Shown here piece after piece: positions 1,401 to 32,492 of a DNA stretch of 33,107 nucleotides (position 1 is the stretch's first letter; each line of letters begins with the position of its first letter). The translations under genes and the position numbers were made by a program. The stretch covers positions 1 to 33,107 of the forward strand of contig JAUCBJ010004114.1 of the NCBI GenBank assembly GCA_032718475.1, given 5' to 3'. Under the pieces are notes generated by a model that searched no databases, was not told the origin of the DNA, and was given only the letters and a program-made list of their open reading frames with translations. Origin of the DNA: Nemertoderma westbladi (lineage: Eukaryota > Animalia > Xenacoelomorpha).

Positions 1401-4400
1401 ACCGACCGACCGACCGACCGACCGACCGACCGACCGACCGACCGACCGACCGACCGACCGACCGACCGACCGACCGACCGACCGACCGACCGACCGACCG
1501 ACCGACCGACCGACCGACCGACCGACCGACCGACCGACCGACCGACCGACCGACCGACCGACCGACCGACCGACCGACCGACCGACCGACCGACCGACCG
1601 ACCGACCGACCGACCGACCGACCGACCGACCGACCGACCGACCGACCGACCGACCGACCGACCGACCGACCGACCGACCGACCGACCGACCGACCGACCG
1701 ACCGACCGACCGACCGACCGACCGACCGACCGACCGACCGACCGACCGACCGACCGACCGACCGACCGACCGACCGACCGACCGACCGACCGACCGACCG
1801 ACCGACCGACCGACCGACCGACCGACCGACCGACCGACCGACCGACCGACCGACCGACCGACCGACCGACCGACCGACCGACCGACCGACCGACCGACCG
1901 ACCGACCGACCGACCGACCGACCGACCGACCGACCGACCGACCGACCGACCGACCGACCGACCGACCGACCGACCGACCGACCGACCGACCGACCGACCG
2001 ACCGACCGACCGACCGACCGACCGACCGACCGACCGACCGACCGACCGACCGACCGACCGACCGACCGACCGACCGACCGACCGACCGACCGACCGACCG
2101 ACCGACCGACCGACCGACCGACCGACCGACCGACCGACCGACCGACCGACCGACCGACCGACCGACCGACCGACCGACCGACCGACCGACCGACCGACCG
2201 ACCGACCGACCGACCGACCGACCGACCGACCGACCGACCGACCGACCGACCGACCGACCGACCGACCGACCGACCGACCGACCGACCGACCGACCGACCG
2301 ACCGACCGACCGACCGACCGACCGACCGACCGACCGACCGACCGACCGACCGACCGACCGACCGACCGACCGACCGACCGACCGACCGACCGACCGACCG
2401 ACCGACCGACCGACCGACCGACCGACCGACCGACCGACCGACCGACCGACCGACCGACCGACCGACCGACCGACCGACCGACCGACCGACCGACCGACCG
2501 ACCGACCGACCGACCGACCGACCGACCGACCGACCGACCGACCGACCGACCGACCGACCGACCGACCGACCGACCGACCGACCGACCGACCGACCGACCG
2601 ACCGACCGACCGACCGACCGACCGACCGACCGACCGACCGACCGACCGACCGACCGACCGACCGACCGACCGACCGACCGACCGACCGACCGACCGACCG
2701 ACCGACCGACCGACCGACCGACCGACCGACCGACCGACCGACCGACCGACCGACCGACCGACCGACCGACCGACCGACCGACCGACCGACCGACCGACCG
2801 ACCGACCGACCGACCGACCGACCGACCGACCGACCGACCGACCGACCGACCGACCGACCGACCGACCGACCGACCGACCGACCGACCGACCGACCGACCG
2901 ACCGACCGACCGACCGACCGACCGACCGACCGACCGACCGACCGACCGACCGACCGACCGACCGACCGACCGACCGACCGACCGACCGACCGACCGACCG
3001 ACCGACCGACCGACCGACCGACCGACCGACCGACCGACCGACCGACCGACCGACCGACCGACCGACCGACCGACCGACCGACCGACCGACCGACCGACCG
3101 ACCGACCGACCGACCGACCGACCGACCGACCGACCGACCGACCGACCGACCGACCGACCGACCGACCGACCGACCGACCGACCGACCGACCGACCGACCG
3201 ACCGACCGACCGACCGACCGACCGACCGACCGACCGACCGACCGACCGACCGACCGACCGACCGACCGACCGACCGACCGACCGACCGACCGACCGACCG
3301 ACCGACCGACCGACCGACCGACCGACCGACCGACCGACCGACCGACCGACCGACCGACCGACCGACCGACCGACCGACCGACCGACCGACCGACCGACCG
3401 ACCGACCGACCGACCGACCGACCGACCGACCGACCGACCGACCGACCGACCGACCGACCGACCGACCGACCGACCGACCGACCGACCGACCGACCGACCG
3501 ACCGACCGACCGACCGACCGACCGACCGACCGACCGACCGACCGACCGACCGACCGACCGACCGACCGACCGACCGACCGACCGACCGACCGACCGACCG
3601 ACCGACCGACCGACCGACCGACCGACCGACCGACCGACCGACCGACCGACCGACCGACCGACCGACCGACCGACCGACCGACCGACCGACCGACCGACCG
3701 ACCGACCGACCGACCGACCGACCGACCGACCGACCGACCGACCGACCGACCGACCGACCGACCGACCGACCGACCGACCGACCGACCGACCGACCGACCG
3801 ACCGACCGACCGACCGACCGACCGACCGACCGACCGACCGACCGACCGACCGACCGACCGACCGACCGACCGACCGACCGACCGACCGACCGACCGACCG
3901 ACCGACCGACCGACCGACCGACCGACCGACCGACCGACCGACCGACCGACCGACCGACCGACCGACCGACCGACCGACCGACCGACCGACCGACCGACCG
4001 ACCGACCGACCGACCGACCGACCGACCGACCGACCGACCGACCGACCGACCGACCGACCGACCGACCGACCGACCGACCGACCGACCGACCGACCGACCG
4101 ACCGACCGACCGACCGACCGACCGACCGACCGACCGACCGACCGACCGACCGACCGACCGACCGACCGACCGACCGACCGACCGACCGACCGACCGACCG
4201 ACCGACCGACCGACCGACCGACCGACCGACCGACCGACCGACCGACCGACCGACCGACCGACCGACCGACCGACCGACCGACCGACCGACCGACCGACCG
4301 ACCGACCGACCGACCGACCGACCGACCGACCGACCGACCGACCGACCGACCGACCGACCGACCGACCGACCGACCGACCGACCGACCGACCGACCGACCG

Positions 4401-5456
4401 ACCGACCGACCGACCGACCGACCGACCGACCGACCGACCGACCGACCGACCGACCGACCGACCGACCGACCGACCGACCGACCGACCGACCGACCGACCG
4501 ACCGACCGACCGACCGACCGACCGACCGACCGACCGACCGACCGACCGACCGACCGACCGACCGACCGACCGACCGACCGACCGACCGACCGACCGACCG
4601 ACCGACCGACCGACCGACCGACCGACCGACCGACCGACCGACCGACCGACCGACCGACCGACCGACCGACCGACCGACCGACCGACCGACCGACCGACCG
4701 ACCGACCGACCGACCGACCGACCGACCGACCGACCGACCGACCGACCGACCGACCGACCGACCGACCGACCGACCGACCGACCGACCGACCGACCGACCG
4801 ACCGACCGACCGACCGACCGACCGACCGACCGACCGACCGACCGACCGACCGACCGACCGACCGACCGACCGACCGACCGACCGACCGACCGACCGACCG
4901 ACCGACCGACCGACCGACCGACCGACCGACCGACCGACCGACCGACCGACCGACCGACCGACCGACCGACCGACCGACCGACCGACCGACCGACCGACCG
5001 ACCGACCGACCGACCGACCGACCGACCGACCGACCGACCGACCGACCGACCGACCGACCGACCGACCGACCGACCGACCGACCGACCGACCGACCGACCG
5101 ACCGACCGACCGACCGACCGACCGACCGACCGACCGACCGACCGACCGACCGACCGACCGACCGACCGACCGACCGACCGACCGACCGACCGACCGACCG
5201 ACCGACCGACCGACCGACCGACCGACCGACCGACCGACCGACCGACCGACCGACCGACCGACCGACCGACCGACCGACCGACCGACCGACCGACCGACCG
5301 ACCGACCGACCGACCGACCGACCGACCGACCGACCGACCGACCGACCGACCGACCGACCGACCGACCGACCGACCGACCGACCGACCGACCGACCGACCG
5401 ACCGACCGACCGACCGACCGACCGACCGACCGACCGACCGACCGACCGACCGACCG
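1401..5456. repeat. Perfect (ACCG)n tetranucleotide microsatellite, ~1014 units
   Basis: Uninterrupted ACCG run from 1401 to 5456 (4056 bp). Confidence 0.98.
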
Positions 5457-6467
5457 ACTGACCTGACTGACTGACTGACTGACTGACTGACTGACTGACT
5501 GACTGACTGACTGACTGACTGACTGACTGACTGACTGACTGACTGACTGACTGACTGACTGACTGACTGACTGACTGACTGACTGACTGACTGACTGACT
5601 GACTGACTGACTGACTGACTGACTGACTGACTGACTGACTGACTGACTGACTGACTGACTGACTGACTGACTGACTGACTGACTGACTGACTGACTGACT
5701 GACTGACTGACTGACTGACTGACTGACTGACTGACTGACTGACTGACTGACTGACTGACTGACTGACTGACTGACTGACTGACTGACTGACTGACTGACT
5801 GACTGACTGACTGACTGACTGACTGACTGACTGACTGACTGACTGACTGACTGACTGACTGACTGACTGACTGACTGACTGACTGACTGACTGACTGACT
5901 GACTGACTGACTGACTGACTGACTGACTGACTGACTGACTGACTGACTGACTGACTGACTGACTGACTGACTGACTGACTGACTGACTGACTGACTGACT
6001 GACTGACTGACTGACTGACTGACTGACTGACTGACTGACTGACTGACTGACTGACTGACTGACTGACTGACTGACTGACTGACTGACTGACTGACTGACT
6101 GACTGACTGACTGACTGACTGACTGACTGACTGACTGACTGACTGACTGACTGACTGACTGACTGACTGACTGACTGACTGACTGACTGACTGACTGACT
6201 GACTGACTGACTGACTGACTGACTGACTGACTGACTGACTGACTGACTGACTGACTGACTGACTGACTGACTGACTGACTGACTGACTGACTGACTGACT
6301 GACTGACTGACTGACTGACTGACTGACTGACTGACTGACTGACTGACTGACTGACTGACTGACTGACTGACTGACTGACTGACTGACTGACTGACTGACT
6401 GACTGACTGACTGACTGACTGACTGACTGACTGACTGACTGACTGACTGACTGACTGACTGACTGAC
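5457..6467. repeat. (ACTG/GACT)n microsatellite, ~250 units, fused to the ACCG array
   Basis: Junction ...accg actg acc tgac tgac..., then pure GACT to 6467. Confidence 0.98.
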
Positions 6468-6744: not shown

Positions 6745-6925
6745 TTAGGACTTTAAGTTTGTTAAACCCGGCCAGTAAAAGCACTGCCTCACCCGGCCGA
6801 GTGTCTGTTCAATGCCTTGGTGGCTGGCTTGTAAATGCCGCAGCAGCGTGAAGGATGACGAGTCAATAGCCATAGAGAACAAGGACAGCATCATCTGTTG
6901 TATGTTCTTGGCGAACTGGCCAGTG
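6745..6925 (-). pseudogene. pol: Ty3/Gypsy pol fragment (RNaseH-integrase linker and integrase zinc-binding region)
   Basis: Minus strand reads HWPVRQEHTTDDAVLVLYGY*LVI and then, after a frameshift, LQASHQGIEQTLGRVRQCFYWPG. This matches the Gypsy pattern YW.VRDEL...DGL.L.G.RLVIP...LH.SHQGI..T..RAR..VYWPG. Confidence 0.8.
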
Positions 6926-7361
6926 GGTTTGATTACATAATAGCAGCATCTGTTGTAAGTTCTTCGCGAACTGGCCAGTGGGTTTGTTTTACATAATAGC
7001 AGCATCTGTTGTAAGTTATTAGCGAACTGGCCAGTGGGTATGATTATATAATTAATAGCAGCATCTGTTGTAAGTTCTTCGCGAACTGGCCAGTGGGTTT
7101 GATTACATAATAGCAGCATCTGTTGTAAGTTCTTGGCGAACTGGCCAGTGGTTTTGTTTACATAATAGCAGCATCTGTTGTAAGTTCTTCGCGAACTGGC
7201 CACTGGGTTTGATTACATAATAGCAGCATCTGTTGTAAGTTCTTGGCGAACTGGCCAGTGGGTTTGATTACATAATTGCAGCATCTGTTGTAAGTTCTTG
7301 GCGAACTGGCCAGTGGTTTTGTTTACAAAATAGCAGCATCTATTGTAAGTTCTTCGCGAAC
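6887..7361. repeat. 55-bp minisatellite, left part (~8-9 units)
   Basis: Unit TAGCAGCATCTGTTGTAAGTTCTT(G/C)GCGAACTGGCCAGTGGGTTTG(A/T)TTACATAA with period 55 (e.g. 7111 to 7166). Confidence 0.95.
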
Positions 7362-7916
7362 TGTTAGCTTATCCAATTCCGCTAACGACCCCATAAAGTG
7401 AGCCGTTAAGCAATATTGGGAACACGAGGTTGATTACCAATATCAACCTCGTGTCACCCCAATAAAGTGGGAAGGATAAACATACGCACAATAGGGGTCA
7501 GGGGTTACACCCCTGAAAGAGAGAGAATAGCAAGGGCGAAGGGAAGCACTTCAGGAGAGGTAAAAGGGCGACAACAGGGTTATTAGCCAATGGGGGGAAG
7601 GCACCGGCTGAGTAACGTAACTTGGCCAACCGTGCAATATATATTATCAGTACAGTAATCATTTCTTTCACTTGTAGTAAGTCAGCTTAGCTAGGGTAGT
7701 ACCGGAACTTCAATTACCGTCTTCGTATACCATCCGTGTATCCAATATCATATCTTATATTTTGTGTTATCATACTTTGTGCCTTATATTATATCCTATA
7801 CTATTATACCCGGAACTATATACAGCGATCAATAAACTCTCTTTAGCTTTCACACACGGCGGGGACGCGTAGATTGAAAACCGGATAAACCGGGATCCTC
7901 CATAGATCCCGTCACA
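7362..7916 (+). repeat. 5' LTR (555 bp)
   Basis: Starts TGTTAG and ends GTCACA. TATA-like AATATATATT at ~7636 and AATAAA at 7831. About 7 differences by eye from the 3' LTR over 494 aligned bp. Confidence 0.93.
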
Positions 7917-7925
7917 GTAATTGAA
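7917..7925 (+). promoter_or_regulatory. Non-tRNA primer-binding site candidate, complementary to LTR-internal 7709-7717
   Basis: GTAATTGAA directly abuts the LTR end, has no TGG, and is the exact reverse complement of TTCAATTAC at 7709-7717. Confidence 0.65.
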
Positions 7926-7997
7926 AGCCAAACTGCTGCCCTAGTTAAACGGTAACTAAAGACCAACAGCCCAAACTGACTGCCAGATACCAGCAAG

Positions 7998-10560
7998 ATG
8001 AGTCAAAAGGGAGAAACGACACCGCCGCGGACCCCGGACGGAGACCTGACGATCCGTGAGGCCGCGACCAGACGGTATAGACCCGCGACGCCGGACCCAT
8101 CGGTAACGGGCGATCCGGCAATCCAAGGTAAGGGGGGCTGTCTGCAACCGGAGAGCGAGTCGAGAGAAGGAGGAGACAAGAAGGGAGAAGAGAAAGACGA
8201 GTCGACGCGGAGCAAGGGTCGACGTACCGATGTCGCTGGCCAGCCACAGGCCGAGGGCGACGGACGGCCCACCGGAATGGCGACGGTGGGGCCGACGGTA
8301 CGACGCCGGACCTGGAGAGAAGGAGGAGATGTCGGCGATGAGGACGTCGGGGTCAGCGATCGACTTTGACGGGCCTACAACGCGACCCGGAAGCTGCTTA
8401 AAGAGGCCAAAGGAGGGGCGAAGATAGATGAGGTAAAGTTGAAGAAAAGACTACATGAGTCGAATGAACATTTCAAATACCTAATGCGCTTTGGACAGAG
8501 AGAACTAGCCGAGAACAGAGCGAGAGGGGTTGCCAGCGAACTGTCTGATCTATGGAAGTGTATGGGTATGCGGGCTAGTGTAGTGTACATAGGGCCATAC
8601 TTAGTCGATGCCCGGGGAATAAAATCAGTGGGTTGGAGGAGACCGCAGGAGGGCGAATCCGAGGTTAACCCTGAAGATTCGGTCTCGTCGGTCGGAGAAA
8701 GTTCCGGGAGGCGGGGGAAAGTTAGTAGGATGGGAAGACGGAGGGAATCCGTCACAACCGATAAGGCTGCTACATCCTCCGCAAAAGGAAGACAGGTGGC
8801 GGCAATAAATCTGGCGTGCGAACTCGATCTGGCGGCGCAGAGTCAGAGAGAATTCGAGAGACGGTTAGAGGAAGTGAGCGCGCTATTAGAGAAGGAGAAA
8901 GAACTAGTTAGAGAAAATAGAGAGAAAGCTGAGAAGGTCGCGAGAAGCTTTAGGGAGCGTGAGGCGAGAGAGCAAAGTGAGCGCAAGGAGCGTGAGGCGA
9001 GAGAGCAAAGTGAGCGCAAGGAGCGTGAGGCGAGAGAAACAGAGTTAATGAAACAGAATTTGCAAGAGGATACAGAGAGAGAGAGAACGGGAAAGCGTGT
9101 GCGGGATGGTATACATACAGGCCCAGATAAGCGAACTTATTGAGTATCAAACCAGAAAGAAACACAAACTGAAAATGGCGCAGATGGGGTTGTCAGAGAG
9201 TGACGCTGGCTCGAGTGCTCTCGAAGAGCCAAGGGCCGTGGATACATTTATTAATACCCCACGTACAGGGACCGCACGACAGACCCGAGTCTGGTATGAC
9301 CGTACGGGCGGGGGGGGGGGGGGGGGGGGTGGGGTAATAATAATAATACAGTAGACGACGTTAATATTAATAGTACCGTATTGGATAATTCTAACCAAAC
9401 CTTTATTCCAGGAAATACTTTACCTAGTAGTAGTAATTTAAACTTAAATACAAATAATCCAAATAATTTAAATAATAGTACGAATTCGAATTTACAAATT
9501 AATCCAAATAATTTAAATAATGATCCAAATCCGAATTTGCAAAATAATTCAAATAATGTACCCACGCAAAATAATTCAAATAATCTTATCTCGAACGAAC
9601 AAAATAATTCTGTTTCTAATTTTGGTGCACAAAATGATTTAGGTGAACTAGGGGACCAAATTGGTTTAACAGGCGACAATCACAGTGGTGCTATTAATGT
9701 GAACGTGTCGGACGTACGCAACCCGGCAGACGGGGGCCTGGTAGGCCACGTAGTTGGTAGGCAGGAGGTGGCGGGGTTGAGCCAACCCGAGGTGGGCCTG
9801 GTAGGCCACGCAGTAGTAGAGAGAGAGGCGGGGGTGAATAGACCCAGCCTTAGTAGAGACAGTGCGTCGACTAGAGAAGGGTGTAGAGGTGAAGTAGGAG
9901 ATGGTGAAGTTAGATGCGGTAGGTGGGGGGGGGGGGGCTACGGGCGCCCCACCACGACAGATTAGTAGCGAGGGGGGTGGGCAGAGAGTGTCCCGCAGGC
10001 GTCGGCGGATAATGTGCGGGCCGAGCTAGGTAAACCGCAACACCCGGCGACGGAGAGTAATAGGGGGATTGCGAGTATCCCCAGCGGCGTGCGATCGAGC
10101 AGAGAGAGGCAGGTTGACGTCGCGAGAGGGCGGACAAAGCGTCGAGCCCGATCAGAAGAGGAAAGAAGAACAGTGGAGTTTAACCGGGAGATGGACGAGA
10201 GATCTCACGAGCGGGAATACTGCACTGAAAAGCGGAAGAGAAGAAGAGAAAAGAAGAAGAGAAGATAGTAGAAAAGGTGTCGCCGCAAACGATAGGAGTG
10301 CGAGGACGGATAGCGGACCGTCGATAGTAGAGATGGAGTTACGGAGTCAGTGGGGTCGAACTTCGGGAGATTGCCGTCGCCCCGGAGAAACGCACCACAC
10401 GCCAAGAGAGGGGTACAGGACGTACCGATACAAAGTCGAGAACAGGAGAGGGGATCGAAGAGAAGCTTCCCGACGGGATATAGCTGCCGATCGAGAGTGC
10501 GGTAGTCGCGGCGAGATTTGAGATTCGCGAAGATTAAACTTCGGTTCGAAAGGGCACTTG
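7998..10560 (+). pseudogene. gag: gag-like N-terminal region, frameshifted and 3'-truncated
   Basis: First ATG after the 5' LTR. Broken ORFs contain a PEDSVS motif (typical of BEL gag N-termini), an E/R coiled coil with 33-bp repeats (EREAREQSERK), and N-rich and R-rich segments. The start MSQKGETTPPRTPD resembles the ORF start after the 27815 LTR. Confidence 0.65.
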
Positions 10561-16728: not shown

Positions 16729-17296
16729 TGTGAGCAAATCAATTCCGCCTCACCAAACCCCATAAAGTGAGCCGTTAAGCAATATTGGGAACACGAGGTT
16801 GATTACCAATATCAACCTCGTGTCACCCAACAAAGTGGGAAGGAGAAAACACACACACACACGCACAATAAGGGTCAGGGGTTACGCCCCTGAAAGAGAG
16901 AGAATAGCAGGGGCAAAGGGAAGCACTTCAGGGAGGGTGAAAGGGCGACAACAGGGTTATTAGCCAATGGGGGGAAGGCACCGGCTGAGTAGTGATTATG
17001 TGGCCAACCGTGCAATATATATATTACCGGTAACCGTGTCATTCATTCAGTTCAGCTAGTCAGTGCAGTTAGGGTGGAGCGGGAACTTCTATCACTGTCC
17101 GCTACCGCCATCACATGTAATACTTTACCGGTATATCATTCAGCTATCTTCTGTGTCTATGTTCTATTTATTATTTATACATATGCCTATCAACAACATC
17201 GGGACTCTCATTGCAACAAACTCTTTTCATACACGGCGGGGACGCGTAAGATAGAAAACCCAAAAGGATAAATCGGGGTCGACCGATCCCGTCACA
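16729..17296 (+). repeat. 3' LTR of the nested element (568 bp, different subfamily)
   Basis: TGTGAG...GTCACA, preceded by a PPT. U3 is very similar to the 7362 LTR while R is diverged. Confidence 0.92.
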
Positions 17297-20109
17297 CGTA
17301 CCATAAACATACCGGTCGACGAACCGAACACGGACAGGACATATTACTTGCCACTCCACGTGGCTTTAGATCCGAAGAAAGGTAAACTGCGGATGGTAGT
17401 GGATGCATTAAGAGACACAGTAAAGGGAAAGGAAGATAAGTACAGCACTAGAGCCGTCAATATGATTCGACGCGGCTTCTACGTAGACGATGGGATGGAG
17501 TCTGGAAACACGATTGAGGAGCTACTGGACACAGGGCGCAAGGTTCGCGACATCCTTAAAGGATCCGGCTTCAACCTGACCAAATTTCAATCCAGTTCGA
17601 AGGAATTTATCGAGGCGATAAGGGATGAGAGACCAGGATTGACCATGGATAATCCCACAACAGCCAAGCGGCAGGACATGGCGAACAAGAGAATAGAGTC
17701 TCAACAGAAGGCGCTGGGAATCGTGTGGAACAGAGAGATGGATGAACTGAAGTACCAGTTGAGTCAGGAGGGCGCAGATACCCACACAAAAAGGGGTTAT
17801 GTGTCATACACAGCAAGGATATACGATCCCCTAGGCCTAGCATCCCCACTACTAGTCACGGGGAAACAGATACTCAAGAGAGTATACAAGCTAAAGGACG
17901 AGTGGGACACAGAGGTCCCGGAAGAGATTAGAAAGCAGTGGTATAAGTGGACATGGGAACATACAGCATGCCACGAGTGTATTTCCCGGATGGGGACATG
18001 ACGAATCTGGACCTACACATGTTCTCCGATGCGTCGTTGGAGGCATACAGAGTGGCACTCTATTTAGTACAATGAGAGGGGGCTCACAAGCCCAGACTCG
18101 CCTTCAGCAAAGCGAAGTCAACGCCACCAGATTCAGCATCAGTTCCCAAACTAGAATTGACAGCTGCGGGACTAGGAGTTACGGCTACAGCCTACCTAAT
18201 GGACGCTATTCCCAACATAGTGGAGACGCACTACTGGACAGATTCCATGGTAGTGCTTGGTTGGCTACATAATGAAAGGACGAGATACCCTATATTCGTC
18301 GCGAATAGGGTGGACGAAATAAGGGCGACCACAGAACTGGAAAGGTGGCACTACTGCCCAACGGACGAGAACCCGGCGGACTTGTTATCGAGGGGCATGG
18401 TACGCCACACTTTCTTGAAGAAGGAAGTATTGTGGCAACACGGGCCACAGTTTCTGAGTGATAGGGAGGCCTGGCCGCCGATGAGAAAGGTGGACCCGGG
18501 CTTAGGAGAAGTAGTGTCAGAAGGAGAAGAGGGAGACTCAGAGGGAGAGGAGATATACTCCCAGATGGTGAGGGAGATAAGGGACGTGCAACCAAAACCA
18601 GGAGAACTGTGCGATAACCCGACGGATAAACTCCTTAACTACAGTTCTAGTTGGTACAAGACCAAGAAGTTAGTGGCATACTGGAGAGCCTTCCGGAATT
18701 TCCTCAGGGGAGTTGGTAGAGACGTGAAGATTAGAACGACAATAGACCTGGAAGGAGCGGCCAAAGCAGTAATCCGCTACGAGCAGAGGAAGAACTACAG
18801 CGACGAGGTGGAGAGCGTCGGTAAGCAACAGCATCTCCGGCGGGACAGCGAGCGGATCACGCTGTCACCACAACTTAATGACGACGGGATTCTAGTAATG
18901 AACTCTAGGGTGGGATACAACAACAGTATCGTCGTACCACCGAAGCCCATCATCATCCCCACAGGATCGCCAATAGTCCACTAGATTATCTGGGACTCCC
19001 ACAAGTCGATATTGCACGGGGGCACCAACCGAACCCTCACGGAGATAAGGAGGACCTTTTGGGTCAAACAGTTGAGGAAGAAGGTAAAGGCGGTAGCGGG
19101 GCAGTGCCAGACCTGCCGACGAGCGAAGAAGGAGCGAGCCATACAGGAGATGGCACCACTACCAGCAAGTAGGGTAAGACAGCACGACCAGCCATTTACA
19201 CATTGCGGTATGGACATGTTCGGGCCGATAAAGATCAAGGTGATGCGGCACACGGAGAAACGCTACGGTATTATCTTCGTATGTAATAACACGCTGGCGG
19301 TAGGGATAGCACTCGCCCAAGATGCAACCGCATCGGCATTCATTAATGCCTTAGAGAGGTTTAGAGACCGCAAAGGTGGGACGATCGCAGTAATATACTC
19401 AGACAACGGGACCAACTTTGTGGGGGCGGAGAACGAAATGGCAGAGGCCTTGGATATCCTGGAAGGAGAGGAAGTCAGGGCAGCCATGAGGCGACGACAA
19501 GTAAAATGGGAGAGGAGGACGCCGTATGCACCGCATACCCTAGGATGCGTCGAGAGACTAGTGGGTAGTTTGAAGCGTCGGATGACGAAGTTGATGAACA
19601 CCCATATGGTCACGGAGGATGTGCTAAGGACAGTACTTGCGAAGTGTGAGGGTATCATTAATAGCAGACCGCTATATCCAGAGAATGATGACCCTGAATC
19701 GCTAGACGTACTGACACCCAGCCATTTCCTAATGGAAAGGCCAGCGACCATCGATATGCGGGGTGTAGACCCAGATGACATACACTCACGCCAGAGTTGG
19801 AAAGTTGCTAAGGCGATAAGCGCAGAGTATTGGAGGAGATGGGTTGAGGAATACCTACCCACGCTTCACAGAAGAAGTAAGTGGAGGAAGACGAACAGAG
19901 AGCTGAAAGAGGGTGATCTCGTGATCGTCACGGATGATACCATCATCAACAACCAGTGGCGGTTGGCGAGGGTTGTAGGCACTTACTCCGATGAGGACGG
20001 AAGAGTCCGATCGGTAGAAGTGCGGATAGGTGGCAAGATTGGTGCCAAAGACAGGAAAACCTACAAAAGGGCTGTAGGGAAGTGCTGTCATCTGGAAGGA
20101 GCACCTTGA
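17297..20109 (+). pseudogene. pol: BEL/Pao pol: partial RT, RNase H, integrase
   Basis: RT: YYLPLHV..PKKGKLRMVVDA, FYVDD, GFNLTKF, YDPLGL. RNase H: LHMFSDAS, PKLEL.AA, WTDS, FVANRV, ENPAD. Integrase: H..HGG..CQTC, MDMFGP, SDNGTNF, ERLV, WRRWVEEYLPTL. Frameshifts at ~17960-18160 and an in-frame TAG at 18982. Confidence 0.95.
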
Positions 20110-20600: not shown

Positions 20601-21101
20601 TGTAGTACTAGTTAGTAAGAGATAGAGGTAGAAGGGTATATATAGTATAGATATCAGTCAGTAGTTAGTAGCGAGAGGGGGGCATATGAGTACAGCTGGA
20701 TAAATCGTGTAGGCCGCGCGACGCATACTGTTGTACTGCACAAGCCCACAGAGTAGGCCAGAATGTGGATTAGGAAATAGAATGATCCATAGGCAATAGT
20801 AAGTAGTAGGACAGTAGAATTCAAATTAGATTAAAATAAAATAAAATAGGGCTGATAAATTAACAAATTACAGTAACAATAGAAAGGAAAATTCTGGAAT
20901 ATAATAAAAGTAACTGACAAAATTCGCAATTTAGGTACAATTTGGTAGCTACAGAAATAATGCAGTGTAAATAGGCTAATTAACTTAGTAATCCAGAGGG
21001 AGATAGGCCATCGAACTGAAATAAACCATCTAAACCTCACTCATCCTATAACGCCTTGGTAAGGCACCACCCAAAGGGTGAGCGATCGGGAAGAGTTCGA
21101 G

Positions 21102-22043
21102 ATGGCAAGCAAACTTGTGCGAAAGAGAAAGGCAGAGCTAGGAGGAAAGGAGATACTGGAGGATTTCACCAAGAGACATCCGGAAGAGAGGACGAGGGGA
21201 TACTATGAGCGGTTAGAAAAGGGTCATGCAGCACGAGCGTTACAGGACCACTTTAGGGAGATGCATGAACAGCGGCTGGTCGGGACCTACGGGACGCCGT
21301 CGCTGGACAACGTGATCTTCGAACATTTCCACTACGTGGTGAAAGTAGACGAGGCGAAGTTCGGGATTCCGAAGTACGCGAGAGAGTCACCGAGGAAAGA
21401 TTGGAAGAGGTTCATAGAGTCCGTCAACAGGGGGGGATACATTTTCCTAGACAACGAAGGGACCGTGGAAGACGAGGAGGGTTCAAGGAGAGGATCGGCG
21501 GGATCGGCCAGAAGCTTACTCCTACATTTGGCCGCGCCAAATGGGGACATTTTCCTGTTTGACCTAGGAACGTATGGGAAGAAGGAGTTCCGGTGGGGCT
21601 TCTTTAACATCAATCAGGAGGCTCACATGGAAATTATCAAACAGAGGCTTCCGTTTACCTACCAGGAAGTGGTGACGGCGGCATCGTATGCCGGGGTGAT
21701 AAATACGCAGAGGTATTTGGATAGGTGGACGCCACAGAACAAAGGAGAGTTTAGGGATTTCTTGGCGGAGCATGTGCCGCAGGCAATGAAGATGATCTTA
21801 TGGGACGCCACCAGGGGGAGACAACAGGGCCACTCGGAGGGGCCACCCGTGAAGCGATATCGGGAGCTGATAACACCGGCACCCAAGGAGCCAACGACCG
21901 GGATCAGTAAGGAGGTGGCGGCGAGAGTCCGAAGACAGAAAGCAGATCCCAGAGGAGTGGCAGTAACCAGGAAACGACCCAGGGAGGAGGACGGCAAAGG
22001 GAAAGACTTGAGGTGGTTCCCAAAGGCTGGTGGAACGAACTAA
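21102..22043 (+). pseudogene. Accessory ORF copy 1, with an in-frame internal deletion of 1608 bp
   Basis: Highly similar to 23310-25862 but joins GTYGKK directly to EFRWGFF at an AGGA microhomology (21583-21586). Keeps ExoI-like FLDNEG but loses the rest of the exonuclease and the zinc knuckles. Confidence 0.85.
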
Positions 22044-23309
22044 GACTTCTGTGTAACATGCCTGGAAGGCACCACGCGAGACGTGCGAACTCTTAAATAC
22101 AAATTCAAATAATGTAAATAATCGAATAAGTGCAATTTGTATGTACGTATGTAGCAATCGGTAATCTAGTAATAAAATATATTTTCGAAGTAAGTACTAT
22201 AGTTATATAACCTTTCTCAACTAGCTACTGGGACTGGGGCCAACTGACTATGGCGCTATGGACGAGACAATAGACAATTTCACACTTCTTGAGTGCGACG
22301 GCACAGGGGGAGGGGTGAGATTCGTCAGGAGTGAGTGAGTAAGAGGAGGGGTCGAGAAAAGTGTGATAGTGCGGAGTGCGAAGAGAGCGTGAGCGCAATT
22401 CAAGTGTGGGGGGGGGGGGGGAGAAGTAAGAGGAAGATTGAAAGACGAGGAGGTTCGGGCGTACGTAAGAGTTGGGGTGAGAGTAGAGTAGAGTTGGAGT
22501 GGCGAAAGTGTTGGGGAAACAAAAGTCGTGTGGGAGGAGCGCGCGATCGGCCCGACACGGGACGCCAGGCAAACGGGTAGCGTTATCATACCCATAGGGA
22601 GCGGCCTGGAAAGCCGGCTCCGAAAGAAAATAGTTCCACCCCACAAACGATACTAGGTCGAGATCCAGCGGAATTGTAGTGCACTAGAGGTAGATGCTAT
22701 CTTCTCACCGGGAGGATAGTAAGAGTAAGAGTAAGAGAGAGTAAGAGTTTAGAGGGTACGTAGTACCGTTAGTTAGAGAGAGTTAGAAGTTAGTAAGAAA
22801 GTACGTAGTACTAGTTAGTAAGAGATAGAGGTAGAAGGGTATATATAGTATAGATATTAGTCAGTAGTGAGTAGCGAGAGGGGGGCATATGAGTACAGCT
22901 GGATAAATCGTGTGGCCACGCTACGCATACTGTTGTACTGCACAGGTCCCACAGAATAGGCCAGAATGTGGATTATAAAATAAAATAATCCATAGGCAAT
23001 AGTAAGTAGTAGGACAGTAGAATTTAAATTAAATTAAAATAAAAATAAGAATAGGGCTAAAAATTAGCAAATTATGGTAACAGTAGAAAAGGAAATTCTG
23101 GAATATAATTAAAGTAACGGACAAAATTGTGATTTAGGGTACTTTTAGTAGCTTCATAATTAAGTAGTGTAAAAAAAAATAGGCAATAACTTAGAAATTC
23201 AGAGAGAGATAGGCCATCGAACTGAAATAAACCATCTAAACCTATCACTCATCATATAGCGCCTTGGTAAGGCACCACCCAAAGGGTGAGCGATCGGGCA
23301 GAGTTCGAG

Positions 23310-25862
23310 ATGGCAAGCAAACTTGTGCGAAAGAGAAATGAGGAGCTAGGAGGAAAGGAGATACTGGTGGATTTCACCAAGAGACATCCGGAAGAAAGGA
23401 CAAGGGGATACTACGACCGGTTAGAAAAGGGTCACGCAGCGCGAGCGCTACAGGACCACTTCAGGGAGGTGCACGAACAGCGGCTGGTCGGGACCTATGG
23501 GACGCCGTCGCTGGACAACGCGATCTTCGAGCATTTCCACTACGTGGTGAAAGGAGACGAGGCGAAGTTCGGGATTCCGAAGTACCCGAGGGAGTCGCCA
23601 AGGAAGGATTGGAAAAGGTTCAGAGAGTCCGTCAACAGGGGAGGATACATGATCCTAGACGACGAAGGGACCGTAGAAGACGAGGAGTGTTCAAGGAGAG
23701 GATCGGCGGGATCGGCCAGAACCATACTCCTACATTTGGCCGCGCCAAATGGGGATATTTTCCTATTTGACCTGGGAACGTATGGGAAGAAGGATGGGCC
23801 GAAGTTGGACCGGCTGCCGAGGGCGGTGCAACTCCTAGTAAGAGAGAATTCGACAACGAAAGTGGGATCGGAGATTCGCGACGACGCGGAGAGAATCATC
23901 GGTCCGGACACCCCCAACCTCCTGGATATGCAGACGGTCTTCATGGCTATGACAGCACCAGACGGGTTGGGACTAGTCGAGAACACAGGCCATAGCGGAA
24001 TGGTGGCGATGGGCCAGCTATTGGGGCTCGTATGTCACAAACCAATGGACTGGGGGAAGTTTAGGGAAGAGTACGGAGCAGAATTAGTGAACTCGCTGAA
24101 GTGGGGAGCGAGGCCGGGAAAACAAGAGGTGTATCAATTCCGAAGAGGAGCGATAAAGGCATATCAGAAGCGATATATCCTGCAGGAGGACTGGATAATT
24201 ATAGGTTTGCATAACCTATTCATGACCATGGTTATCGAGAGGGAACCAGCGGCATTCCTATTATCGGGATCACCCCTAAACTACAGAAGAGCCTTTAAGA
24301 CGGCTTTCGCGGGTCTGGTAGACCACCCGGGGCTGAGGGGCGAGTCGGTGTACTACAATAGCCGACATCTAGTAGATGGGAAGATAGATACGCCGTATCA
24401 AAGATGGGAGCAGCTAGAGACGGATAGACGAGAGGCGAAGCGACTGGAAGAAGTCGTTAGACGGGAGAGGATAGAAGCAGAGGAAAGGGAGGAGGAAGCC
24501 AGGGCACAGGGCTACGGCTTCGAGGAACAGGCGGGCTTAGATGAACTTCATTGGACTTCATCAGGGAGTTCGGCGGAGTCTCTAGGACGAGAACTGGGAT
24601 GGACGGTGGGATCACCGAAACAGTCGACGTCGGGATTGCAAGCGACGCCCATACCAGCGGGCGCCGAGGGCGACAAGCCACTAAGGAAGCTAGGGGAGCT
24701 AGAGGGCGAGAGCCAAGGCAGGAAGGAACATAGTGGATCCACCGGGATACCGGGGTTGGAGCCACTGCCAGAGGAGGATGAAGACGACGATGAGTTCGGA
24801 GAGATGCCGCCCATTGGGAGGATCGGCCACTCAGACACGGACTGGGTTGGCGGGAGGGTGGTGACGGCCAGTGGGGCGAGGGCCTTCTGGGATAGACCCG
24901 GCAAGCGGGCCTGGGTGCACGAGGAGCCGGCGATGGATTTCGCGGGGAGCACTATCAGGTTGGGTGAACAACCGGGGACGGCACCACGAGTAGTATTCGG
25001 GGAGACAATGCCCGAAAGGGGCACGGAGATCGACGTAGATCGGGACACTAACGTCCGGAAGTTCGCTTACCAGCGACTCCACAGACCGCGGAGATTGCTT
25101 GGGACGAAAGACGACGTGGGGCGGGAGACATTGGTACTCGGTTGCGACTACTGTGGGAGACAGACCCACCAGGAAAGGAGCTGTCTGTACCGGTTCCAGA
25201 AGGGAACTAGTTGTCTCTATTGCCGCGAGTCGAGCCACAGGATGGGGGCGTGTCCACGGTTGCATAACCGATGTTCGAAATGTAACTTCCGGGGACATTG
25301 CGGACGCCAGTACGACTGGATGGACGACAAAGAGAAGTTTAGGATCTTCGAGGAGTGGGCCGACATTGGGGCGATGACTCGGTAACGTATGAAGGCCCAG
25401 GAGTTCCGGTGGGGCTTCTTTAACATCAATCAGGAGGCTCACATGGAGATTATCAAACGGAGGCTTCCGTTTACCTACCAGGAAGTGGCGACGGCGGCAT
25501 CATATGCCGGAGTGATAAATACGCAGAGGTATTTGGATAGGTGGACGCCACAGAGCAGAGGAGAATTTAGGGATTTCTTGGCGGAGCATGTGCCGCGGGC
25601 AATGAAGATGATCTTATGGGACGCCACCAGGGGGAGACAACAGGGCCACTCGGAGGGGCCACCCGTCAAGCGATACCGGGAGCTAATAACACCGGCACCC
25701 AAGGAGTCAACGACCGGGATCAGTAAGGAGGTGGCGGTGAGAGTCCGAAGCCAGAAAGCAGACAAGACTAGAGGAGCGGCAGTGACCAGGAAACGACCCA
25801 GGGAGGAGGACAACAAAAGGAAAGACTTAAGGTGGTTCCCAAAGGCTGATGGAACAAACTAA
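23310..25862 (+). CDS. Accessory ORF copy 2: DEDDy 3'-5' exonuclease-like domain, coiled coil/acidic linker, CCHC zinc-knuckle cluster; one in-frame TAA at 25383
   Basis: ILDDEGT (ExoI), LLHLA...IFLFDL, LPRAVQLLV....TKVGSEIRDD (ExoII), LLDMQ, G..AM..LLG...HK, QKRYILQED (ExoIII-like) follow the WRN/EXD/Mut-7/RNase D motif order. CDYCGRQTHQERSC, CLYCRESSHRMGAC and CSKCNFRGH form the knuckle cluster. The first ATG (gagATGg) at 23310 is taken as the start. Confidence 0.75.
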
Positions 25863-26542
25863 GACTGCGGTGTAACATGCCTGGAAGGCACCACGCGAGA
25901 CGTGCGAACTCTTAAATACAAATTCAAATAATGTAAATAATCGAATAAGTGCAATTTGTATGTACGTACGTAGCAATCAGTAGTCTAGTAACGAAATATA
26001 TATATTCGAAATAAGTACTATAGTCATATAACCTTTCTCAATTAGCTACTGGGACTGGGGACCAATGGACTATAATACTACCAGGGACGAGACATTGGAC
26101 GACATCACGCTTCTTGAGTGCGACGGCACAAAAGGGAGGGGTGAAACTCGTCGGGAGTGAGTGGTCACGATAGGGGTTGAGTTGTAGTGCGGAGAGAGCG
26201 CGGAGTATAGAGAGAGTGCGAGCGCAATTCAAGTGTGGGGGGGGGGGAGAAGTAAGAGGCAGATTGAGGAACGACGAGGTCCGAGAGTGTGTAAGAGTTG
26301 GGGTGAGAGTAGAGTAGAGTTGGAGTGGTGAAAGTGTTGGGGAAACAAATGTCGTGTGGGAGGAGCGCACGATCGGCCCAACGCGGAACGCCAGACAAAC
26401 GGGGTAGCATTATCATACCCATAGGGAGCGGCCTGGAAAGCCGGCTCCGAGAAAAATAGTTCCACCCCACACCCGATACTAGATCGGGATCCAGAGGAAT
26501 TGTAGCGCACTAGAGGTGGATGCTATCTTCTCACCGGGAAGT

Positions 26543-27036
26543 CACGAGGTTGATTACCAATATCAACCTCGTGTCACCCCAATAAAGTGGGAAGGAGAAA
26601 CATATGCACAATAGGGGTCAGGGGTTACACCCCTGAAAGAGAGAGAATAGCAAGGGCGAAGGGAAGCACTTCAGGAGAGGTAAAAGGGCGACAACAGGGT
26701 TATTAGCCAATGGGGGGAAGGCACCGGCTGAGTAACGTAACTTGGCCAACCGTGCAATATATATTATCAGTACAGTAATCATTTCTTTCACTTGTAGTAA
26801 GTCAGCTTAGCTAGGGTAGGACCAGAACTTCAATTACCGTCTTCGTATACCATCCGTGTATCCAATATCATATCTTATATTTTGTGTTATCATACTTTGT
26901 GCCTTATATTATATCCTATACTATTATACCCGGAACTATATACAGTGATCAATAAACTCTCTTTACCTTTCACACACGGCGGGGACGCGTAGATTGAAAA
27001 CCGGATAAACCGGGATCCTCCATAGATCCCATCACA
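26543..27036 (+). repeat. 3' LTR of the outer element, missing its first 61 bp and the PPT
   Basis: Matches 7423-7916, ends ATCACA and is followed by the TSD CGAAC. Confidence 0.93.
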
Positions 27037-27814
27037 CGAACTGGCCAGTGGGTTTGATTACATAATAGCAGCATCTATTGAAAGTTCTTGGCGAACTGGC
27101 CAGTGGTTTTGTTTACATAATAGCAGCATCTGATGTAAGCTCTTCGCGAACTGGCCAGTGGGTTTGTTTACATAATAGCAGCATCTGTTATAAGTTCTTG
27201 GCGAACTGGCCAGTGGGTTTGATTACATAATTACTAGCAGCATCTGTTGTAACTTCTTCGCGAACTGGCCAGTGGGTTTGATTACATAATAGCAGCATCT
27301 GTTGTAAGTTCTTGGCGAACTGGCCAGTGGTTTTGTTTACATAATAGCAGCATCTGTTGTAAGTTGTTGGCGAACTGGCCAGTTGGTTTGTTTACATAAT
27401 AGCAGCATCTGTTGTAAGTTCTTGGCGAACTGGCCAGTGGCTTTGATTACATAATAGCAGCATCAGTTGTAAGTACTTGGCGAACTGGCCAGTGGGTTTG
27501 TTTACATAATAGCAGCATCTGTTGTAAGTTCTTGGCGAACTGGCCAGTGGGTTTGTTTACATAATAGCAGCATCTGTTGTAAGTTCTTGGCGAACTGGCC
27601 AGTGGACTTGTTTACATAATAGCAGCATCTGTTGTAAGTTTTTGGCGAACTGGCCAGTGGGCTTGTTTACACAATAGCAGCATCTGTTGTATGTTATTGG
27701 CATACTGGCCAGTGGGTTTGATTACATAATAGCAGCATATGTTGTAAGTTCTTGGCGAACTGGTCAGTGGGCTAGTTTACATAATAGCAGCATCTGTTGT
27801 AAGTTCTTCGCGAA
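27037..27814. repeat. 55-bp minisatellite, right part (~14 units)
   Basis: Same unit as 6887-7361, resuming in phase after the TSD. Confidence 0.95.
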
Positions 27815-28600
27815 TGTAAGCGGATTCAATTCCACCAGAAAATGGGATAGTGGCATTTTCAGCAATATGTTGGAGATATGAGATTAGCAATATTAATCTC
27901 GTATCACAACCAACATTTGGGAGGGGGGGGGGGGCACAAGCCCCGAAGCCACACACAAAGGAAGGTTAGAGGTCAAACCACCTCGGAGGGGACACAGCTA
28001 GTAGAGGCTAGCAGCAGAGGGGAAACACTCCCAGAGAGTGCAAGGGTGACAAGTAGGATATTAGCCAATAAGGGGGAGGAAAGCACGTGATAGGGCACAG
28101 AAGAGCATCCATTAGGTAACAGGCCAAAGTAGCGTAGGAGGTAAAGCAATATTGGTATATCAATCATATATTACCTCTCGTTACCGGTTTATGATTCAAT
28201 TAGCTAGTTACTTAGTTTTAGTGCAGACCGGTAACATTGTTTCACCGTCATCGTATATGGGCTGTTATCATACATTACCATTGCCGGGCCGGTTTGTGAT
28301 TCAACATATACAATCTTTATTGTGCTACTATTATTATACATATATTACAACGCAAGGAATAACATTAACAACGCTTTTCTCCAACGGCCTCGGCCAAGCA
28401 ATCAATACCATCTTAGAGCCTGCGGTGACGCGTATAGCAACCAACCCGGTCGGGATCTCTGATCCTGTCACAGTGAAACAATTGACCAACTGCCATCAAA
28501 CTGTGACTGCAAGAATAAGAGGAGAGGATGAGCGATAGAGAACCCCGATTATCAGAGGGAGAGAGAACGCCGCCGCGGACCCCGGACGATACCAACCAAA
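27815..28600 (+). mobile_element. 5' LTR (27815-28472) plus leader and gag start of a more distant relative; the rest is deleted
   Basis: TGTAAGCGGATTCAATTCC...GATCCTGTCACA. Shares ATTAGCCAAT.GGGGG and GACGCGTA with the other LTRs. Followed by MSDREPRLSEGERTPPRTPD. Confidence 0.85.
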
Positions 28601-29374
28601 CGAACTACTCAAAAAATTCAATGCATTCATTCTTCAGTCCTTGAGTCTCACTCATCGGTTAGTCCAGTTTGCCCATAGCGCTAACGCAGTAGCGATACCA
28701 AAAGTCGAGCTCGCCAACAACACTGCATCAGACAGAGGCGGTGGCCTTGATGGCGAGTTGTTTGAGTACCGGTACAATTACAAAACGTTGCTGGGTATTG
28801 CAGTATTGGGCAGTTCCAGTTGGGGTACCGATTGCAATAGCGGATACTGGAACATGGAATAAAGGTCAGCTGGTACAACCTGACAATATGTCAGTCTGTC
28901 TTAAGTCCGTATAATTTCAAAACTTCCATGGCTGCATGGTTGCCTTTGCCGAGCCTATTGGTGACCAAAAACCAACGACTTGAAGAAGGTACCGGTCATA
29001 GCGTACTCTATTAAAGGCCTTGCAAGCGTGCAGCCTTCAAAATTTATGGAGGCTGGATTATAAACGGTAGCGTACTGCTGTATTGTGTGTGTGCAGGCAT
29101 GGGGAGAGTTCTATAAATTTTCATTTGTTGCAATTTGGTTAATGGATGTAATTGAAGCCTCATCGATAAGCAAAATAAAAAATTTTATGGTAGCTAGTGT
29201 TTTAAGTAGCTTTAGCTAGTAATTTTAACACTGGTTCCGATATCCTACTTCCTTCTATAAATATTTTATAGTAGCTAGTTCTTATTTCTATTTATATAGA
29301 AAATGTTCCAAAACATGTTAGCTATTCATTTTTAAAAATATTCTAGAATATTCATTATTATTTATAATGTTTAA

Positions 29375-30506
29375 GGGGGGGGGGGGGGGGGGTAGCGCAT
29401 TTTCTGACCAAAAAGACGAATTTTTGAAACATATCCTATCTGATGCAGAATTTCATGCTGAATCCAAATATGGAAACCGTTTTCCGATATCTTGCTTAGT
29501 TTTCGAGATATCTGGGATAGAAGATACTGGCTCCGATATATCGCGATATCGGTAAAGGCGATGAAGTTTGGGGTTTGCATTCAATTTCTGCATATTTCTG
29601 TGCTCAGTGGTGCCAATTGGATGTCTCCATGAGAAAGAGCACAAAATTTTAATTGAGAAGGTATTTTTTTATGATTATTGGACCTACTGATCAGTTTATA
29701 AGACAACTTCAAGTCTCCGGAATGAAGCGAATAAGCGACTCTGCGGTCTTTGCGCGATTACACGGAATAGACTTATTGGTCATCGGAGATCTTCAAATTG
29801 TATAATCTCCAGTTCTAGTGGTCGTACGAAGTTCGTTTTAGGCTCATTCGAAAGCTCTTTTCTTAGAGAACAAAGTTACCATTTGATTTAAGACAAAATG
29901 GTTGTAAAGCAACATAACATGAATTTGGGTAAAATATGCCTTGCAAATTTTGTTCAAGTTATGATTGCTCAGGCAGCTTTCAAGAGTTTGCCAAACCAAA
30001 TGGTAACTTTGGTCTCTGAGAAAAGAGCCTTCGAATGAGCCCAAAACGAACTTCGTACGACCACTAGAACTGGAGATTATACATTTTGAAGATCTCCGAT
30101 GACCAATAAGTCTATTCCGTGTAATCCCACAAAGACTGCAGAGTCGCTTATTCGAGTCCCGTCTTCATTCCGGAGACTTGAAGTTGTCATATAAACTGAT
30201 CAGTAGGTCCAATAATCATAAAAAAATATCTTCTCAATTAAAATTTTGTGCTCTTTCTCGTGGAGACATCCAATTAGCACCACTGAGCACAGAAATATTC
30301 AGAAATTGATTGCAAACCCCAAACTTCATCTCCTTTACCGATATCGCGAACCATCGGAGCCAGTATCTTCTATCCCAGATATCTCGAAAACTAAGTAAGA
30401 TATGGGAAAACGGTTTCCATATTTGGATTCAGCATGAAATTCTCCATCAGATAGGATATGTTTCAAAAATTCGACTTTTTGGTCTGAAAATGCGCTACCC
30501 CCCCCC
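29375..30506. mobile_element. Foldback MITE with TTAA TSD (Kolobok-like)
   Basis: TTAA at 29371-29374 and 30507-30510; GG...CC termini; ~510-bp highly similar inverted arms around a ~110-bp spacer. Superfamily inferred from TTAA plus purine-purine start. Confidence 0.88.
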
Positions 30507-31129: not shown

Positions 31130-32492
31130 TTCCATTTTACAAAATTTCCATTATACATTTCCAAATTTACTTTCCCACCATCACTCTCCCAATTGGAAGA
31201 AAGAAGTAAAAAGCAAAAAAGAAACATACCTTGCTTTAATTTCAGCAAGGCATCCCAGGACCAAACTCAAAAATATAAGGAGTACATTGCGTCTCACCTG
31301 GAAGCCCATCATTACATCTCCGATGCTAAACAAGACTCTGCTCAACACATTTCCGAAAGACTTGCACACCTAACCAAAACCATTATGGAAGCTTCAAAGA
31401 AATTTATTCCATATAGTTAGTTACCCACGACAAAAGAAAAATAGGACACTTGAGAAACAACACAGATCCAGACCACAACAAATTAATTATTCCCTTAATA
31501 AAGGCAAAACAAGAGTGGTTAAAAAGTGGAGGAGACTTGAACACTCAAGAATACCATAAATACCGCATCGCTAAGCTAGAATATGAAGACACCCTGAAGA
31601 GAAAAGCACAACAATCAGAAATATCCTACCAACTTCATGTTAAAGAAATAGCCAACTCAATAAAAGATCCAAAAAAATTCTGGTGAATAGTAAAACCACA
31701 TAAACAAAAACAACAGCTATCTGACACCAATGTGGACAAACTACATAAAGACTACATTACAAATTTCAAATTAGATGTACAAGATGAACATTGCAATGAT
31801 ACCGTCACTCTCCCTGCTGATACACCTTACCCAACAGTTGTTACAGAATCACATATCAATCACAATAATAACACTTCTAAATCGTGGTAAGGCAACTGAC
31901 ATACCCAACATGAAAGCAGAAAATCTTTACCATGGCTTATCTCACAATTTATGTACAATTATGTTTAACAATACAATATGTTTAACTCCATCAACAAATC
32001 AGCAAACTGTCCCTTGATTCTATCCCAAAGCCTCTTAATCGCTGTTCCTAAACCAATGAATGGTAACAACATTTTTGAAAACATGCGCTTTAGAGGCATC
32101 ACCACCATACTCAATGTCATTGCCAAATTATGGGAAACTACAATACTTAAGGAATTAGAATGCCTACAAACGAACGACCTACAACTTGGTTACAAAACTA
32201 AGGTAAACTCGGAGACAGCATACATAACAACAGCTAACCTTATTAAAATCTTTAATCAACAGCATTCCCAGGTGCACACAGTTTGTTTAGACCTCACTTC
32301 AGCCTTTGATAAAAGTATCATATAACCAGCTCTTTTCAAAGCTATATTCATCAGATGTAAACCCAAGAATTGTTTCTGCAATAAAATCATACTACCTGAA
32401 CTCTGTTGCATACATGCGTAATGGGACATATATATATCAGGAAGAAATATCAATAGAACAGGGCGTCCGCCAGGGAGGAGTGTTAAGTTCAC
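31130..32492 (+). pseudogene. Decayed non-LTR retrotransposon (LINE) ORF2 / reverse transcriptase fragment
   Basis: PKKFW*, GKA, AVPK, FRGIT..NVIAKLWE, QLGYK, CLDLTSAFDK and GVRQGGVLS across several frames; cut at 32492 by an LTR. Confidence 0.88.

Follow-up and report, generated by a model that had tools for sequence, protein, structure and literature searches.

Putative self-priming by element RNA in a BEL/Pao retrotransposon lineage, with covarying LTR and primer-binding-site sequences

The window analyzed here, a 33,107-nt stretch of a Nemertoderma westbladi contig (JAUCBJ010004114.1), is a nested cluster of BEL/Pao elements. One of these, element A, consists of the following parts.

7357–7361 and 27037–27041, forward strand: target-site duplication CGAAC, 5 bp, inside a 55-bp satellite
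7362–7916, forward strand: 5′ LTR of element A, 555 nt, TG...CA
7998–10521, forward strand: gag-region frames of A, from the first ATG, interrupted by stops
17297–20109, forward strand: pol remnant of A, spread over three frames that cover the end of RT, the Peptidase_A17/RNase H region, and an integrase with DUF5641
23271–25385, forward strand: extra 704-aa frame after pol, with a partial copy at 21063–22043
26536–27036, forward strand: 3′ LTR of element A, 98% identical to the 5′ LTR, with its first ~55 nt missing

BEL/Pao polyproteins were the best protein relatives in the database search (up to 40% identity), and Peptidase_A17, DUF5641, Integrase_H2C2 and rve were matched in 3 of the 10 frames scanned, so the BEL/Pao assignment proposed in the initial annotation holds. 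In detail, a Pao-type Peptidase_A17 region, an integrase following RT/RNase H and a C-terminal DUF5641 were found, together with TG...CA LTRs, the target-site duplication and a polypurine tract, the last being present before the related LTRs B and C and deleted at the 3′ LTR of A. The pol remnant is without its 5′ part, the gag-region frames gave no Pfam match, and no chromodomain match was found among the frames scanned. A deletion between short repeated letters at 26500–26545 removed the polypurine tract of A together with ~55 nt at the start of its 3′ LTR.

The extra frame after pol occurs in two tandem 3′ regions that are 90% alike. A language-model feature search, with a score of 0.94, pointed to a 3′-5′ exonuclease domain (34% of the matched cluster carries PF01612), a Cys/His-rich tail is present, and acidic motifs were recognized by eye. 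A word search found no relative of this frame, Pfam and PDB searches gave no meaningful match, the search of representatives returned only repeat-like matches, and the predicted model had a pLDDT of 33. The frame is therefore regarded as a candidate PF01612-type exonuclease on the basis of that one feature search.

Three further LTRs in the window are related to those of A.

16729–17296, forward strand: LTR B, belonging as 3′ LTR to a related element that is nested in A; a polypurine tract precedes it
17087–17095, forward strand: primer-equivalent segment of LTR B
27815–28472, forward strand: LTR D, 5′ LTR of a divergent family
32493–33053, reverse strand: LTR C, the 3′ LTR of another family of this group, with a polypurine tract before it

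The window includes 5′ LTR junctions for A and D only. The gag of D starts at 28528, and a TPPRTPD stretch is common to D and A. Both elements were inserted in the same 55-bp satellite (6887–7363 and 27037–27814) at almost matching registers, following CGAAC in A and GCGAA in D, which possibly reflects a target preference. The flank of LTR C was considered as a relic of a binding site and rejected, as contigs show it to be a separate, unrelated repeat that also occurs without the LTR. Within this repeat (32480–32492, reverse strand), five letters continuing the LTR end also fit the LTR end plus the predicted binding site, and eight letters directly match C's own R segment; this could be due to chance or to homology-guided insertion, as described for Tf1 in PMC11042837.

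Elsewhere in the window, long inverted-repeat DNA elements lie at 10765–11098/14583–14916 and 29384–30506, the former occupying the place of the missing gag-pol junction of A and of the 5′ part of the element with LTR B. About 5 kb of a 4-bp microsatellite (1266 copies) extends over 1401–6467. The window contains 0 tRNA genes.

The sequences at the two 5′ LTR junctions and the LTR segments complementary to them are as follows.

7709–7717, forward strand: candidate self-primer 3′ end of A, TTCAATTAC, with a copy in the 3′ LTR at 26829–26837
7917–7925, forward strand: putative primer-binding site of A, GTAATTGAA, with no spacer after the LTR and no TGG
28236–28245, forward strand: candidate self-primer 3′ end of D, ATTGTTTCAC, aligning with the segment of A
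28473–28482, forward strand: putative primer-binding site of D, GTGAAACAAT, the exact 10-nt complement of 28236–28245

The initial annotation had claimed that no TGG-type site follows the 5′ LTR of A, that 7917–7925 is the complement of 7709–7717, and that the 3′ base of this segment forms a pair with the base immediately following the LTR. All three claims were confirmed: GTAATTGAA directly abuts the LTR, the complementarity is exact over 9 of 9 pairs, and 7717 pairs with 7917. No TGG-starting tRNA-type site was found after the 5′ LTR of either A or D. By itself, the complementarity in A is suggestive but not decisive, with a chance probability of 0.2% when the LTR is shuffled and 0.5% at random window positions (20,000 draws each). 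The annotation had further proposed that complementarity be checked in other family members, and D passes this check with changed letters. At the homologous LTR position, 10 of 10 pairs are exact and the binding site is flush with the LTR end, with chance probabilities of 0.035% (shuffled LTR) and 0.12% (random window positions). Of the nine positions common to both sites, four carry different letters in A and D, and each of these four is matched on the LTR side; the cognate primer/site duplexes of A and D have energies of −8.2 and −10.8 kcal/mol, vs. −2.1 and −2.7 kcal/mol for the crossed ones. The ends of the 3′ LTRs of A (A3), B and C, used as controls, gave complementarities of 4, 4 and 5 nt. 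The geometry known from Tf1, in which the 3′ base of the segment pairs with the first post-LTR base, is thus present here and conserved across families. No GT-AG intron splits the primer in A or D, and both primers are contiguous. A further exact copy of the binding-site 9-mer of A lies at 29148–29156, away from LTR ends, with 0.3 copies expected by chance.

The position of the primer segment within the transcript was then considered from the following motifs of the 5′ LTR.

7586–7591, forward strand: CCAAT box
7636–7645, forward strand: TATA-like box, 73 nt before 7709–7717
7831–7836, forward strand: AATAAA, 114 nt downstream of the primer end of A

The distance from the TATA-like motif to the primer end is 75–78 nt in all four LTR families (D has a second motif at 97), and no TATA-like motif lies 30 nt before the 7709–7717 segment. 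The spacing of the TATA box and the transcription start is well defined for Pol II; based on this spacing and the position of the TATA-like box, we infer that transcription of A starts near 7660–7672, which would place the primer at the end of a capped piece of RNA about 50 nt long. Among distant relatives in metagenome contigs (see below), a TATA-like motif lies 70–170 spliced nt upstream in 4 of the 7 examined. The separation of about 70 nt between TATA-like box and segment that had been annotated initially was measured at 73 nt. The accompanying estimate of a primer ~40 nt inside the transcript gains indirect support from the TATA spacing in all four families and in 4 of the 7 relatives, but the folding of A mildly favors a start at 7709. 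A primer segment at the poly(A) site was rejected for A and D; in A, AATAAA lies well downstream of the primer end.

Folding of the leader RNA was predicted for both 5′ LTRs, and involves these parts in A.

7688–7699, forward strand: upstream segment of helix P0, predicted to pair with leader 7936–7947
7718–7725, forward strand: 5′ strand of helix P2, pairing with 7860–7867, directly after the predicted cut
7859–7870, forward strand: conserved U5 motif, followed by a decoy at 7869–7878, an imperfect second partner of the primer segment
7891–7911, forward strand: U5 hairpin with 7 bp that stops five bases short of the LTR end; the prediction recurs in each of the four LTR families

For D (28195–28530), the priming fold itself has the lowest energy when no constraints are set; it comprises the primer/site pair, P2 (28247–28254 with 28422–28429), the 7-bp U5 hairpin, and helices between the 5′ part of the RNA and the leader. 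For A, the free fold, in which the segment pairs with U5 7869–7878, is predicted at −75.9 vs. −71.1 for the priming fold, that is, the decoy is 4.8 kcal/mol more stable in naked RNA. Over 15 start/end combinations, the pair probability of the primer and site in D ranged from 0.0 to 1.0, reaching 1.0 with a start at 28236 and the shortest end, while that in A stayed at 0.0 whenever the RNA began upstream of 7709, and rose to 0.65 only in one combination, a short fragment starting at 7709. This predicted folding of A is a real count against a simple self-priming model. In A, B and C, the decoy pairing shows covariation (17, 11 and 47 of 1000 shuffles as low, respectively), but not in D (436 of 1000). 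P2 carries one matched double change in D and beats shuffles only there (0 of 1000 as low, vs. 387 in A, 131 in B and 125 in C). P0 is weak and not family-specific, as 68 and 30 of 1000 shuffles were as low, and 58 and 149 for the crossed pairs. The primer helix, unlike the others, stops exactly at the LTR boundary and is free of G-U pairs in both A and D, and it is the only predicted helix that is both perfect and family-specific in both 5′ LTRs. This is easier to reconcile with a site regenerated from the primer in each cycle than with a helix of purely structural role. Compared with the three-duplex "pretzel" of Tf1, the U5 hairpin is predicted in four of four families and P2 is predicted as well, while the third duplex uses another partner with weak statistics, and A prefers the decoy.

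For LTR C, a binding site was predicted from the LTR of C and fixed before contigs were inspected, three of its letters being shared by design. Among contigs leaving C-like LTR ends, row X1 (3 contigs) agreed with the prediction at 5 of 6 free positions and row X3 (1 contig) at 4 of 6. The prediction was matched at 8 of 9 positions, not 9 of 9, in a comparison that uses the LTR segment of C rather than those of the contigs themselves. The majority row of X1 is built from 3 contigs with an agreement of 0.73, and its continuation resembles the leaders of A and D. None of the 13 loose-end rows listed for C-like ends starts with TGG after the LTR. One loose end in run X5 resembles a template-switching adaptor, so that this run, listed as DNA(?), may be cDNA.

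To place these elements among distant relatives, assembled contig collections were scanned. The LTR-end motif gave 0 matches in viral_contigs and 0 in metagenome_contigs, while the protein scan gave 80 metagenome loci of 31–41% identity, of which the 39 with a gag start and leader were examined; the one distant locus from viral_contigs was left out of the trees. When one GT-AG intron was allowed, self-complementarity of at least 10 nt, at a place resembling an LTR end, was found in 13 of 22 loci of one clade vs. 0 of 17 outside it, with a shuffled null of 19 in 390 trials. The 13 loci represent 10 families, one of them doubtful (L017 resembles chance), and 11 were scored across an LTR intron and two as contiguous. 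In contrast, TGG-type sites were found in 11 of the 17 loci outside the clade. The binding sites of A, D and the ten relative families all differ, each is matched by its own LTR, and none starts with TGG, thus no single host tRNA explains them.

These counts carry conditions. The relaxed intron filter was set after the sequences had been read by eye, the splice-site criteria of the first scan being stricter; L019, L029 and L045, self-complementary by eye, failed the filter and were scored as misses; and an LTR pair gives independent evidence for the LTR end in just 3 of the 10 relative families. The clade was drawn from a quick integrase tree (41 rows, SH-aLRT 96) after five loci of the self-complementary type had been seen, and the trees are without named reference elements (BEL, Pao, Tas, Suzu, Sinbad, Dan, Flow). 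In both free trees, A is a long branch outside the self-complementary clade, but its placement within that clade was not rejected by the AU test (p-AU 0.41), so that one or two origins are possible.

In ten loci (L002, L022, L023, L044, L050, L065, L069, L070, L076 and L080), the site matches the LTR only across a GT-AG intron; introns are 71–157 nt long in the six loci with a clear donor, and the donor is ambiguous in L022, L023 and L044. In L036 (145–326; 6531–7103), the primer is contiguous in the 3′ LTR, while at the same point the 5′ LTR, which is 87% alike, shows what by eye resembles an intron acceptor; this difference looks like intron loss through reverse transcription.

The absence of a tRNA site combined with a binding site exactly complementary to a fixed spot in the element's own LTR makes priming by the element's own RNA likely. 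Given the observed complementarity and geometry, the conservation between A and D with changed letters, and the constant promoter-to-primer spacing, the BEL/Pao lineage of A and D probably initiates reverse transcription by Tf1-like self-priming, as judged from sequence. Covariation in D and the distant BEL/Pao clade lend weight to the self-priming interpretation already offered in the initial annotation, whose proposed pair stands, but which had missed element D, the imperfect U5 partner and the intron-built primer of the relatives.

A possible course can be proposed for A. A transcript beginning near 7660–7672 would carry the primer as the 3′ end of its capped fragment of ~50 nt, and a leader fold would pair 7709–7717 with 7917–7925 beside P2 (7718–7725/7860–7867) and the U5 hairpin. 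Since the segment has an imperfect second partner in U5 in A, B and C, Gag/RT chaperoning would be needed in these to move the segment from the decoy onto the binding site. By analogy with Tf1, the RNase H of RT may then cut after 7717 at the junction of the two helices. RT would copy U5 and the remaining R and jump to the 3′ R via about 140 nt of homology, and plus-strand synthesis would recopy the primer into a new binding site. Because the primer would be recopied in each cycle, the pair would remain perfectly Watson-Crick; the helices on either side of it drift and contain G-U pairs and bulges. A dead-end product was not found in the window.

Two variants within self-priming concern the origin of the primer. 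Transcription could start at or near 7709, so that the primer would be the RNA 5′ end as in Tf1; this has a small but real chance of being right. The folding results suit it, since the priming fold of A is competitive (0.65) only from that start and D reaches 1.0 from 28236 with the shortest end, and the segment of D begins on a C-A step. Against this, the sole TATA-like box lies 73 nt upstream with a spacing kept in four families, none lies 30 nt before the segment, and in the relatives the primer is split by an intron, the nearest TATA-like motif being 70–146 spliced nt ahead of the primer end in the 4 of 7 with such a motif. Quite unlikely is a primer drawn from the 3′ R copy or a second packaged RNA and trimmed by an exonuclease to its AC end. 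The segment does occur in both LTRs, its 3′ R copy would be free of U5 partners, and the extra frame resembles PF01612-type exonucleases in language-model features (0.94). But this assignment was not confirmed by the word, Pfam, PDB or representative searches, most self-complementary relatives showed no extra post-pol frame (one was seen in L065), and trimming would leave that RNA without most of the R that its strand transfer requires.

Among explanations other than self-priming, an RNA switch is unlikely, in which the R segment would alternate its pairing between U5 and the site after the LTR to control packaging, translation or 5′ polyadenylation, with some other primer being used. It would account for the co-variation of the U5 partner in A, B and C, where cognate pairing is better than crossed, for the U5-partner fold being the minimum-energy fold of A, and for AATAAA lying inside the loop closed by P2. 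It does not account for D, which keeps the perfect post-LTR pairing and not the U5 partner (436 of 1000), nor for a post-LTR helix that ends at the LTR boundary with no G-U in A or D, and no alternative site for a primer can be seen; a switch would not preclude self-priming. Priming by a host tRNA half or other small RNA, with the LTR match being secondary, is very unlikely. Such priming exists in some Ty1/copia lineages according to PMC6317226, but A, D and the ten relative families have different sites, each matched by its own LTR and none with TGG, and three 7–9-nt motifs from the sites of A and D were absent from seven supplements of PMC13524379, including a table of 12-nt tRNA-type sites. 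Extremely unlikely is chance complementarity, for which A alone (p about 0.002–0.005) and the fourth exact 9-mer match in the window (29148–29156) leave some room; it is largely refuted by D, which repeats the match at the homologous position with four matched changes, and the relatives (13 of 22 in the clade vs. 0 of 17 outside) speak against it too.

Self-priming has precedents in other groups of retrotransposons. It is described for Tf1 (PMC7175516, PMC10085805, PMC11042837). Taken together, the literature consulted, which also included PMC6317226, PMC5443660, PMC4600332, PMC3601003, PMC3118150, PMC8220671, PMC554778, PMC5408684, PMC4580426, PMC5341516 and PMC13524379, describes self-priming for Tf1/sushi elements and Tcn1, predicts it for TAR copia elements, and gives a tRNA-Tyr site for the BEL/Pao element Achilles. 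In the Tf1 papers, the primer is yielded by RNase H cleavage (PMC7175516), both side duplexes of the "pretzel" use LTR sequence downstream of the primer (PMC10085805), and single-stranded binding-site DNA occurs on about half of the cDNA (PMC11042837). Element A resembles Tf1, Tf2, Tj1 and other Tf1/sushi elements in a post-LTR site complementary to its own LTR, a 9–11-nt duplex and flanking U5 helices, here as predicted. It differs in belonging to another superfamily, in a primer apparently placed about 40–45 nt inside the transcript rather than at nt 1–11, in a post-site sequence predicted to pair upstream of the primer, in a competing U5 decoy, and in that RNase H cleavage was demonstrated in Tf1, while in A it is assumed by analogy. 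Element A is thus a BEL/Pao member that probably works like Tf1, and the Ty3/gypsy chromovirus polyprotein of Tf1/sushi elements is not found in it.

For the plant Ty1/copia elements TAR, Houba and Osr-1, self-priming was predicted from complementarity of LTR and binding site (PMC6317226); these likewise represent a non-gypsy superfamily, but are copia elements of plants. With tRNA-primed BEL/Pao elements such as Achilles, the present elements share the set and order of domains, TG...CA LTRs, a 5-bp duplication, and a polypurine tract adjoining the 3′ LTR. The bdelloid Ty3/gypsy elements Juno and Vesta, whose ORF3 is a DEDDy exonuclease according to PMC5408684, are similar in an extra post-pol frame with a possible 3′-5′ exonuclease, whereas here the frame lies in a BEL/Pao element and the exonuclease assignment comes from one feature search. 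No report of self-priming in BEL/Pao was found in the literature searched, most subscription papers being outside its coverage, and the accessible parts of PMC554778, PMC3118150, PMC8220671, PMC5443660 and PMC3601003 give no priming mechanism for BEL/Pao; the remark in the initial annotation that such priming was not known to be described agrees with this searchable literature.

A broader proposal, possible though somewhat doubtful, is that a large and old part of BEL/Pao has given up tRNA priming in favor of a third independent form of self-priming, using as primer the cut 3′ end of a capped leader of 50–150 nt that is assembled by splicing in many families and that, in the present elements, would be ready-made, held by a U5 decoy, switched by a chaperone and possibly finished by an exonuclease encoded by the element. 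The covarying pair of A and D leads to exact predictions of RNA 3′ ends, at 7717 and 28245. If self-priming is true, a simple new rule would be available for annotation tools, and many BEL/Pao elements without a recognizable tRNA site would be explained. Such elements would lie beyond host control exerted via tRNA supply or tRNA fragments, and tRNA-independent initiation would reach a third superfamily, in animals, with an internal part of the transcript serving as the primer.
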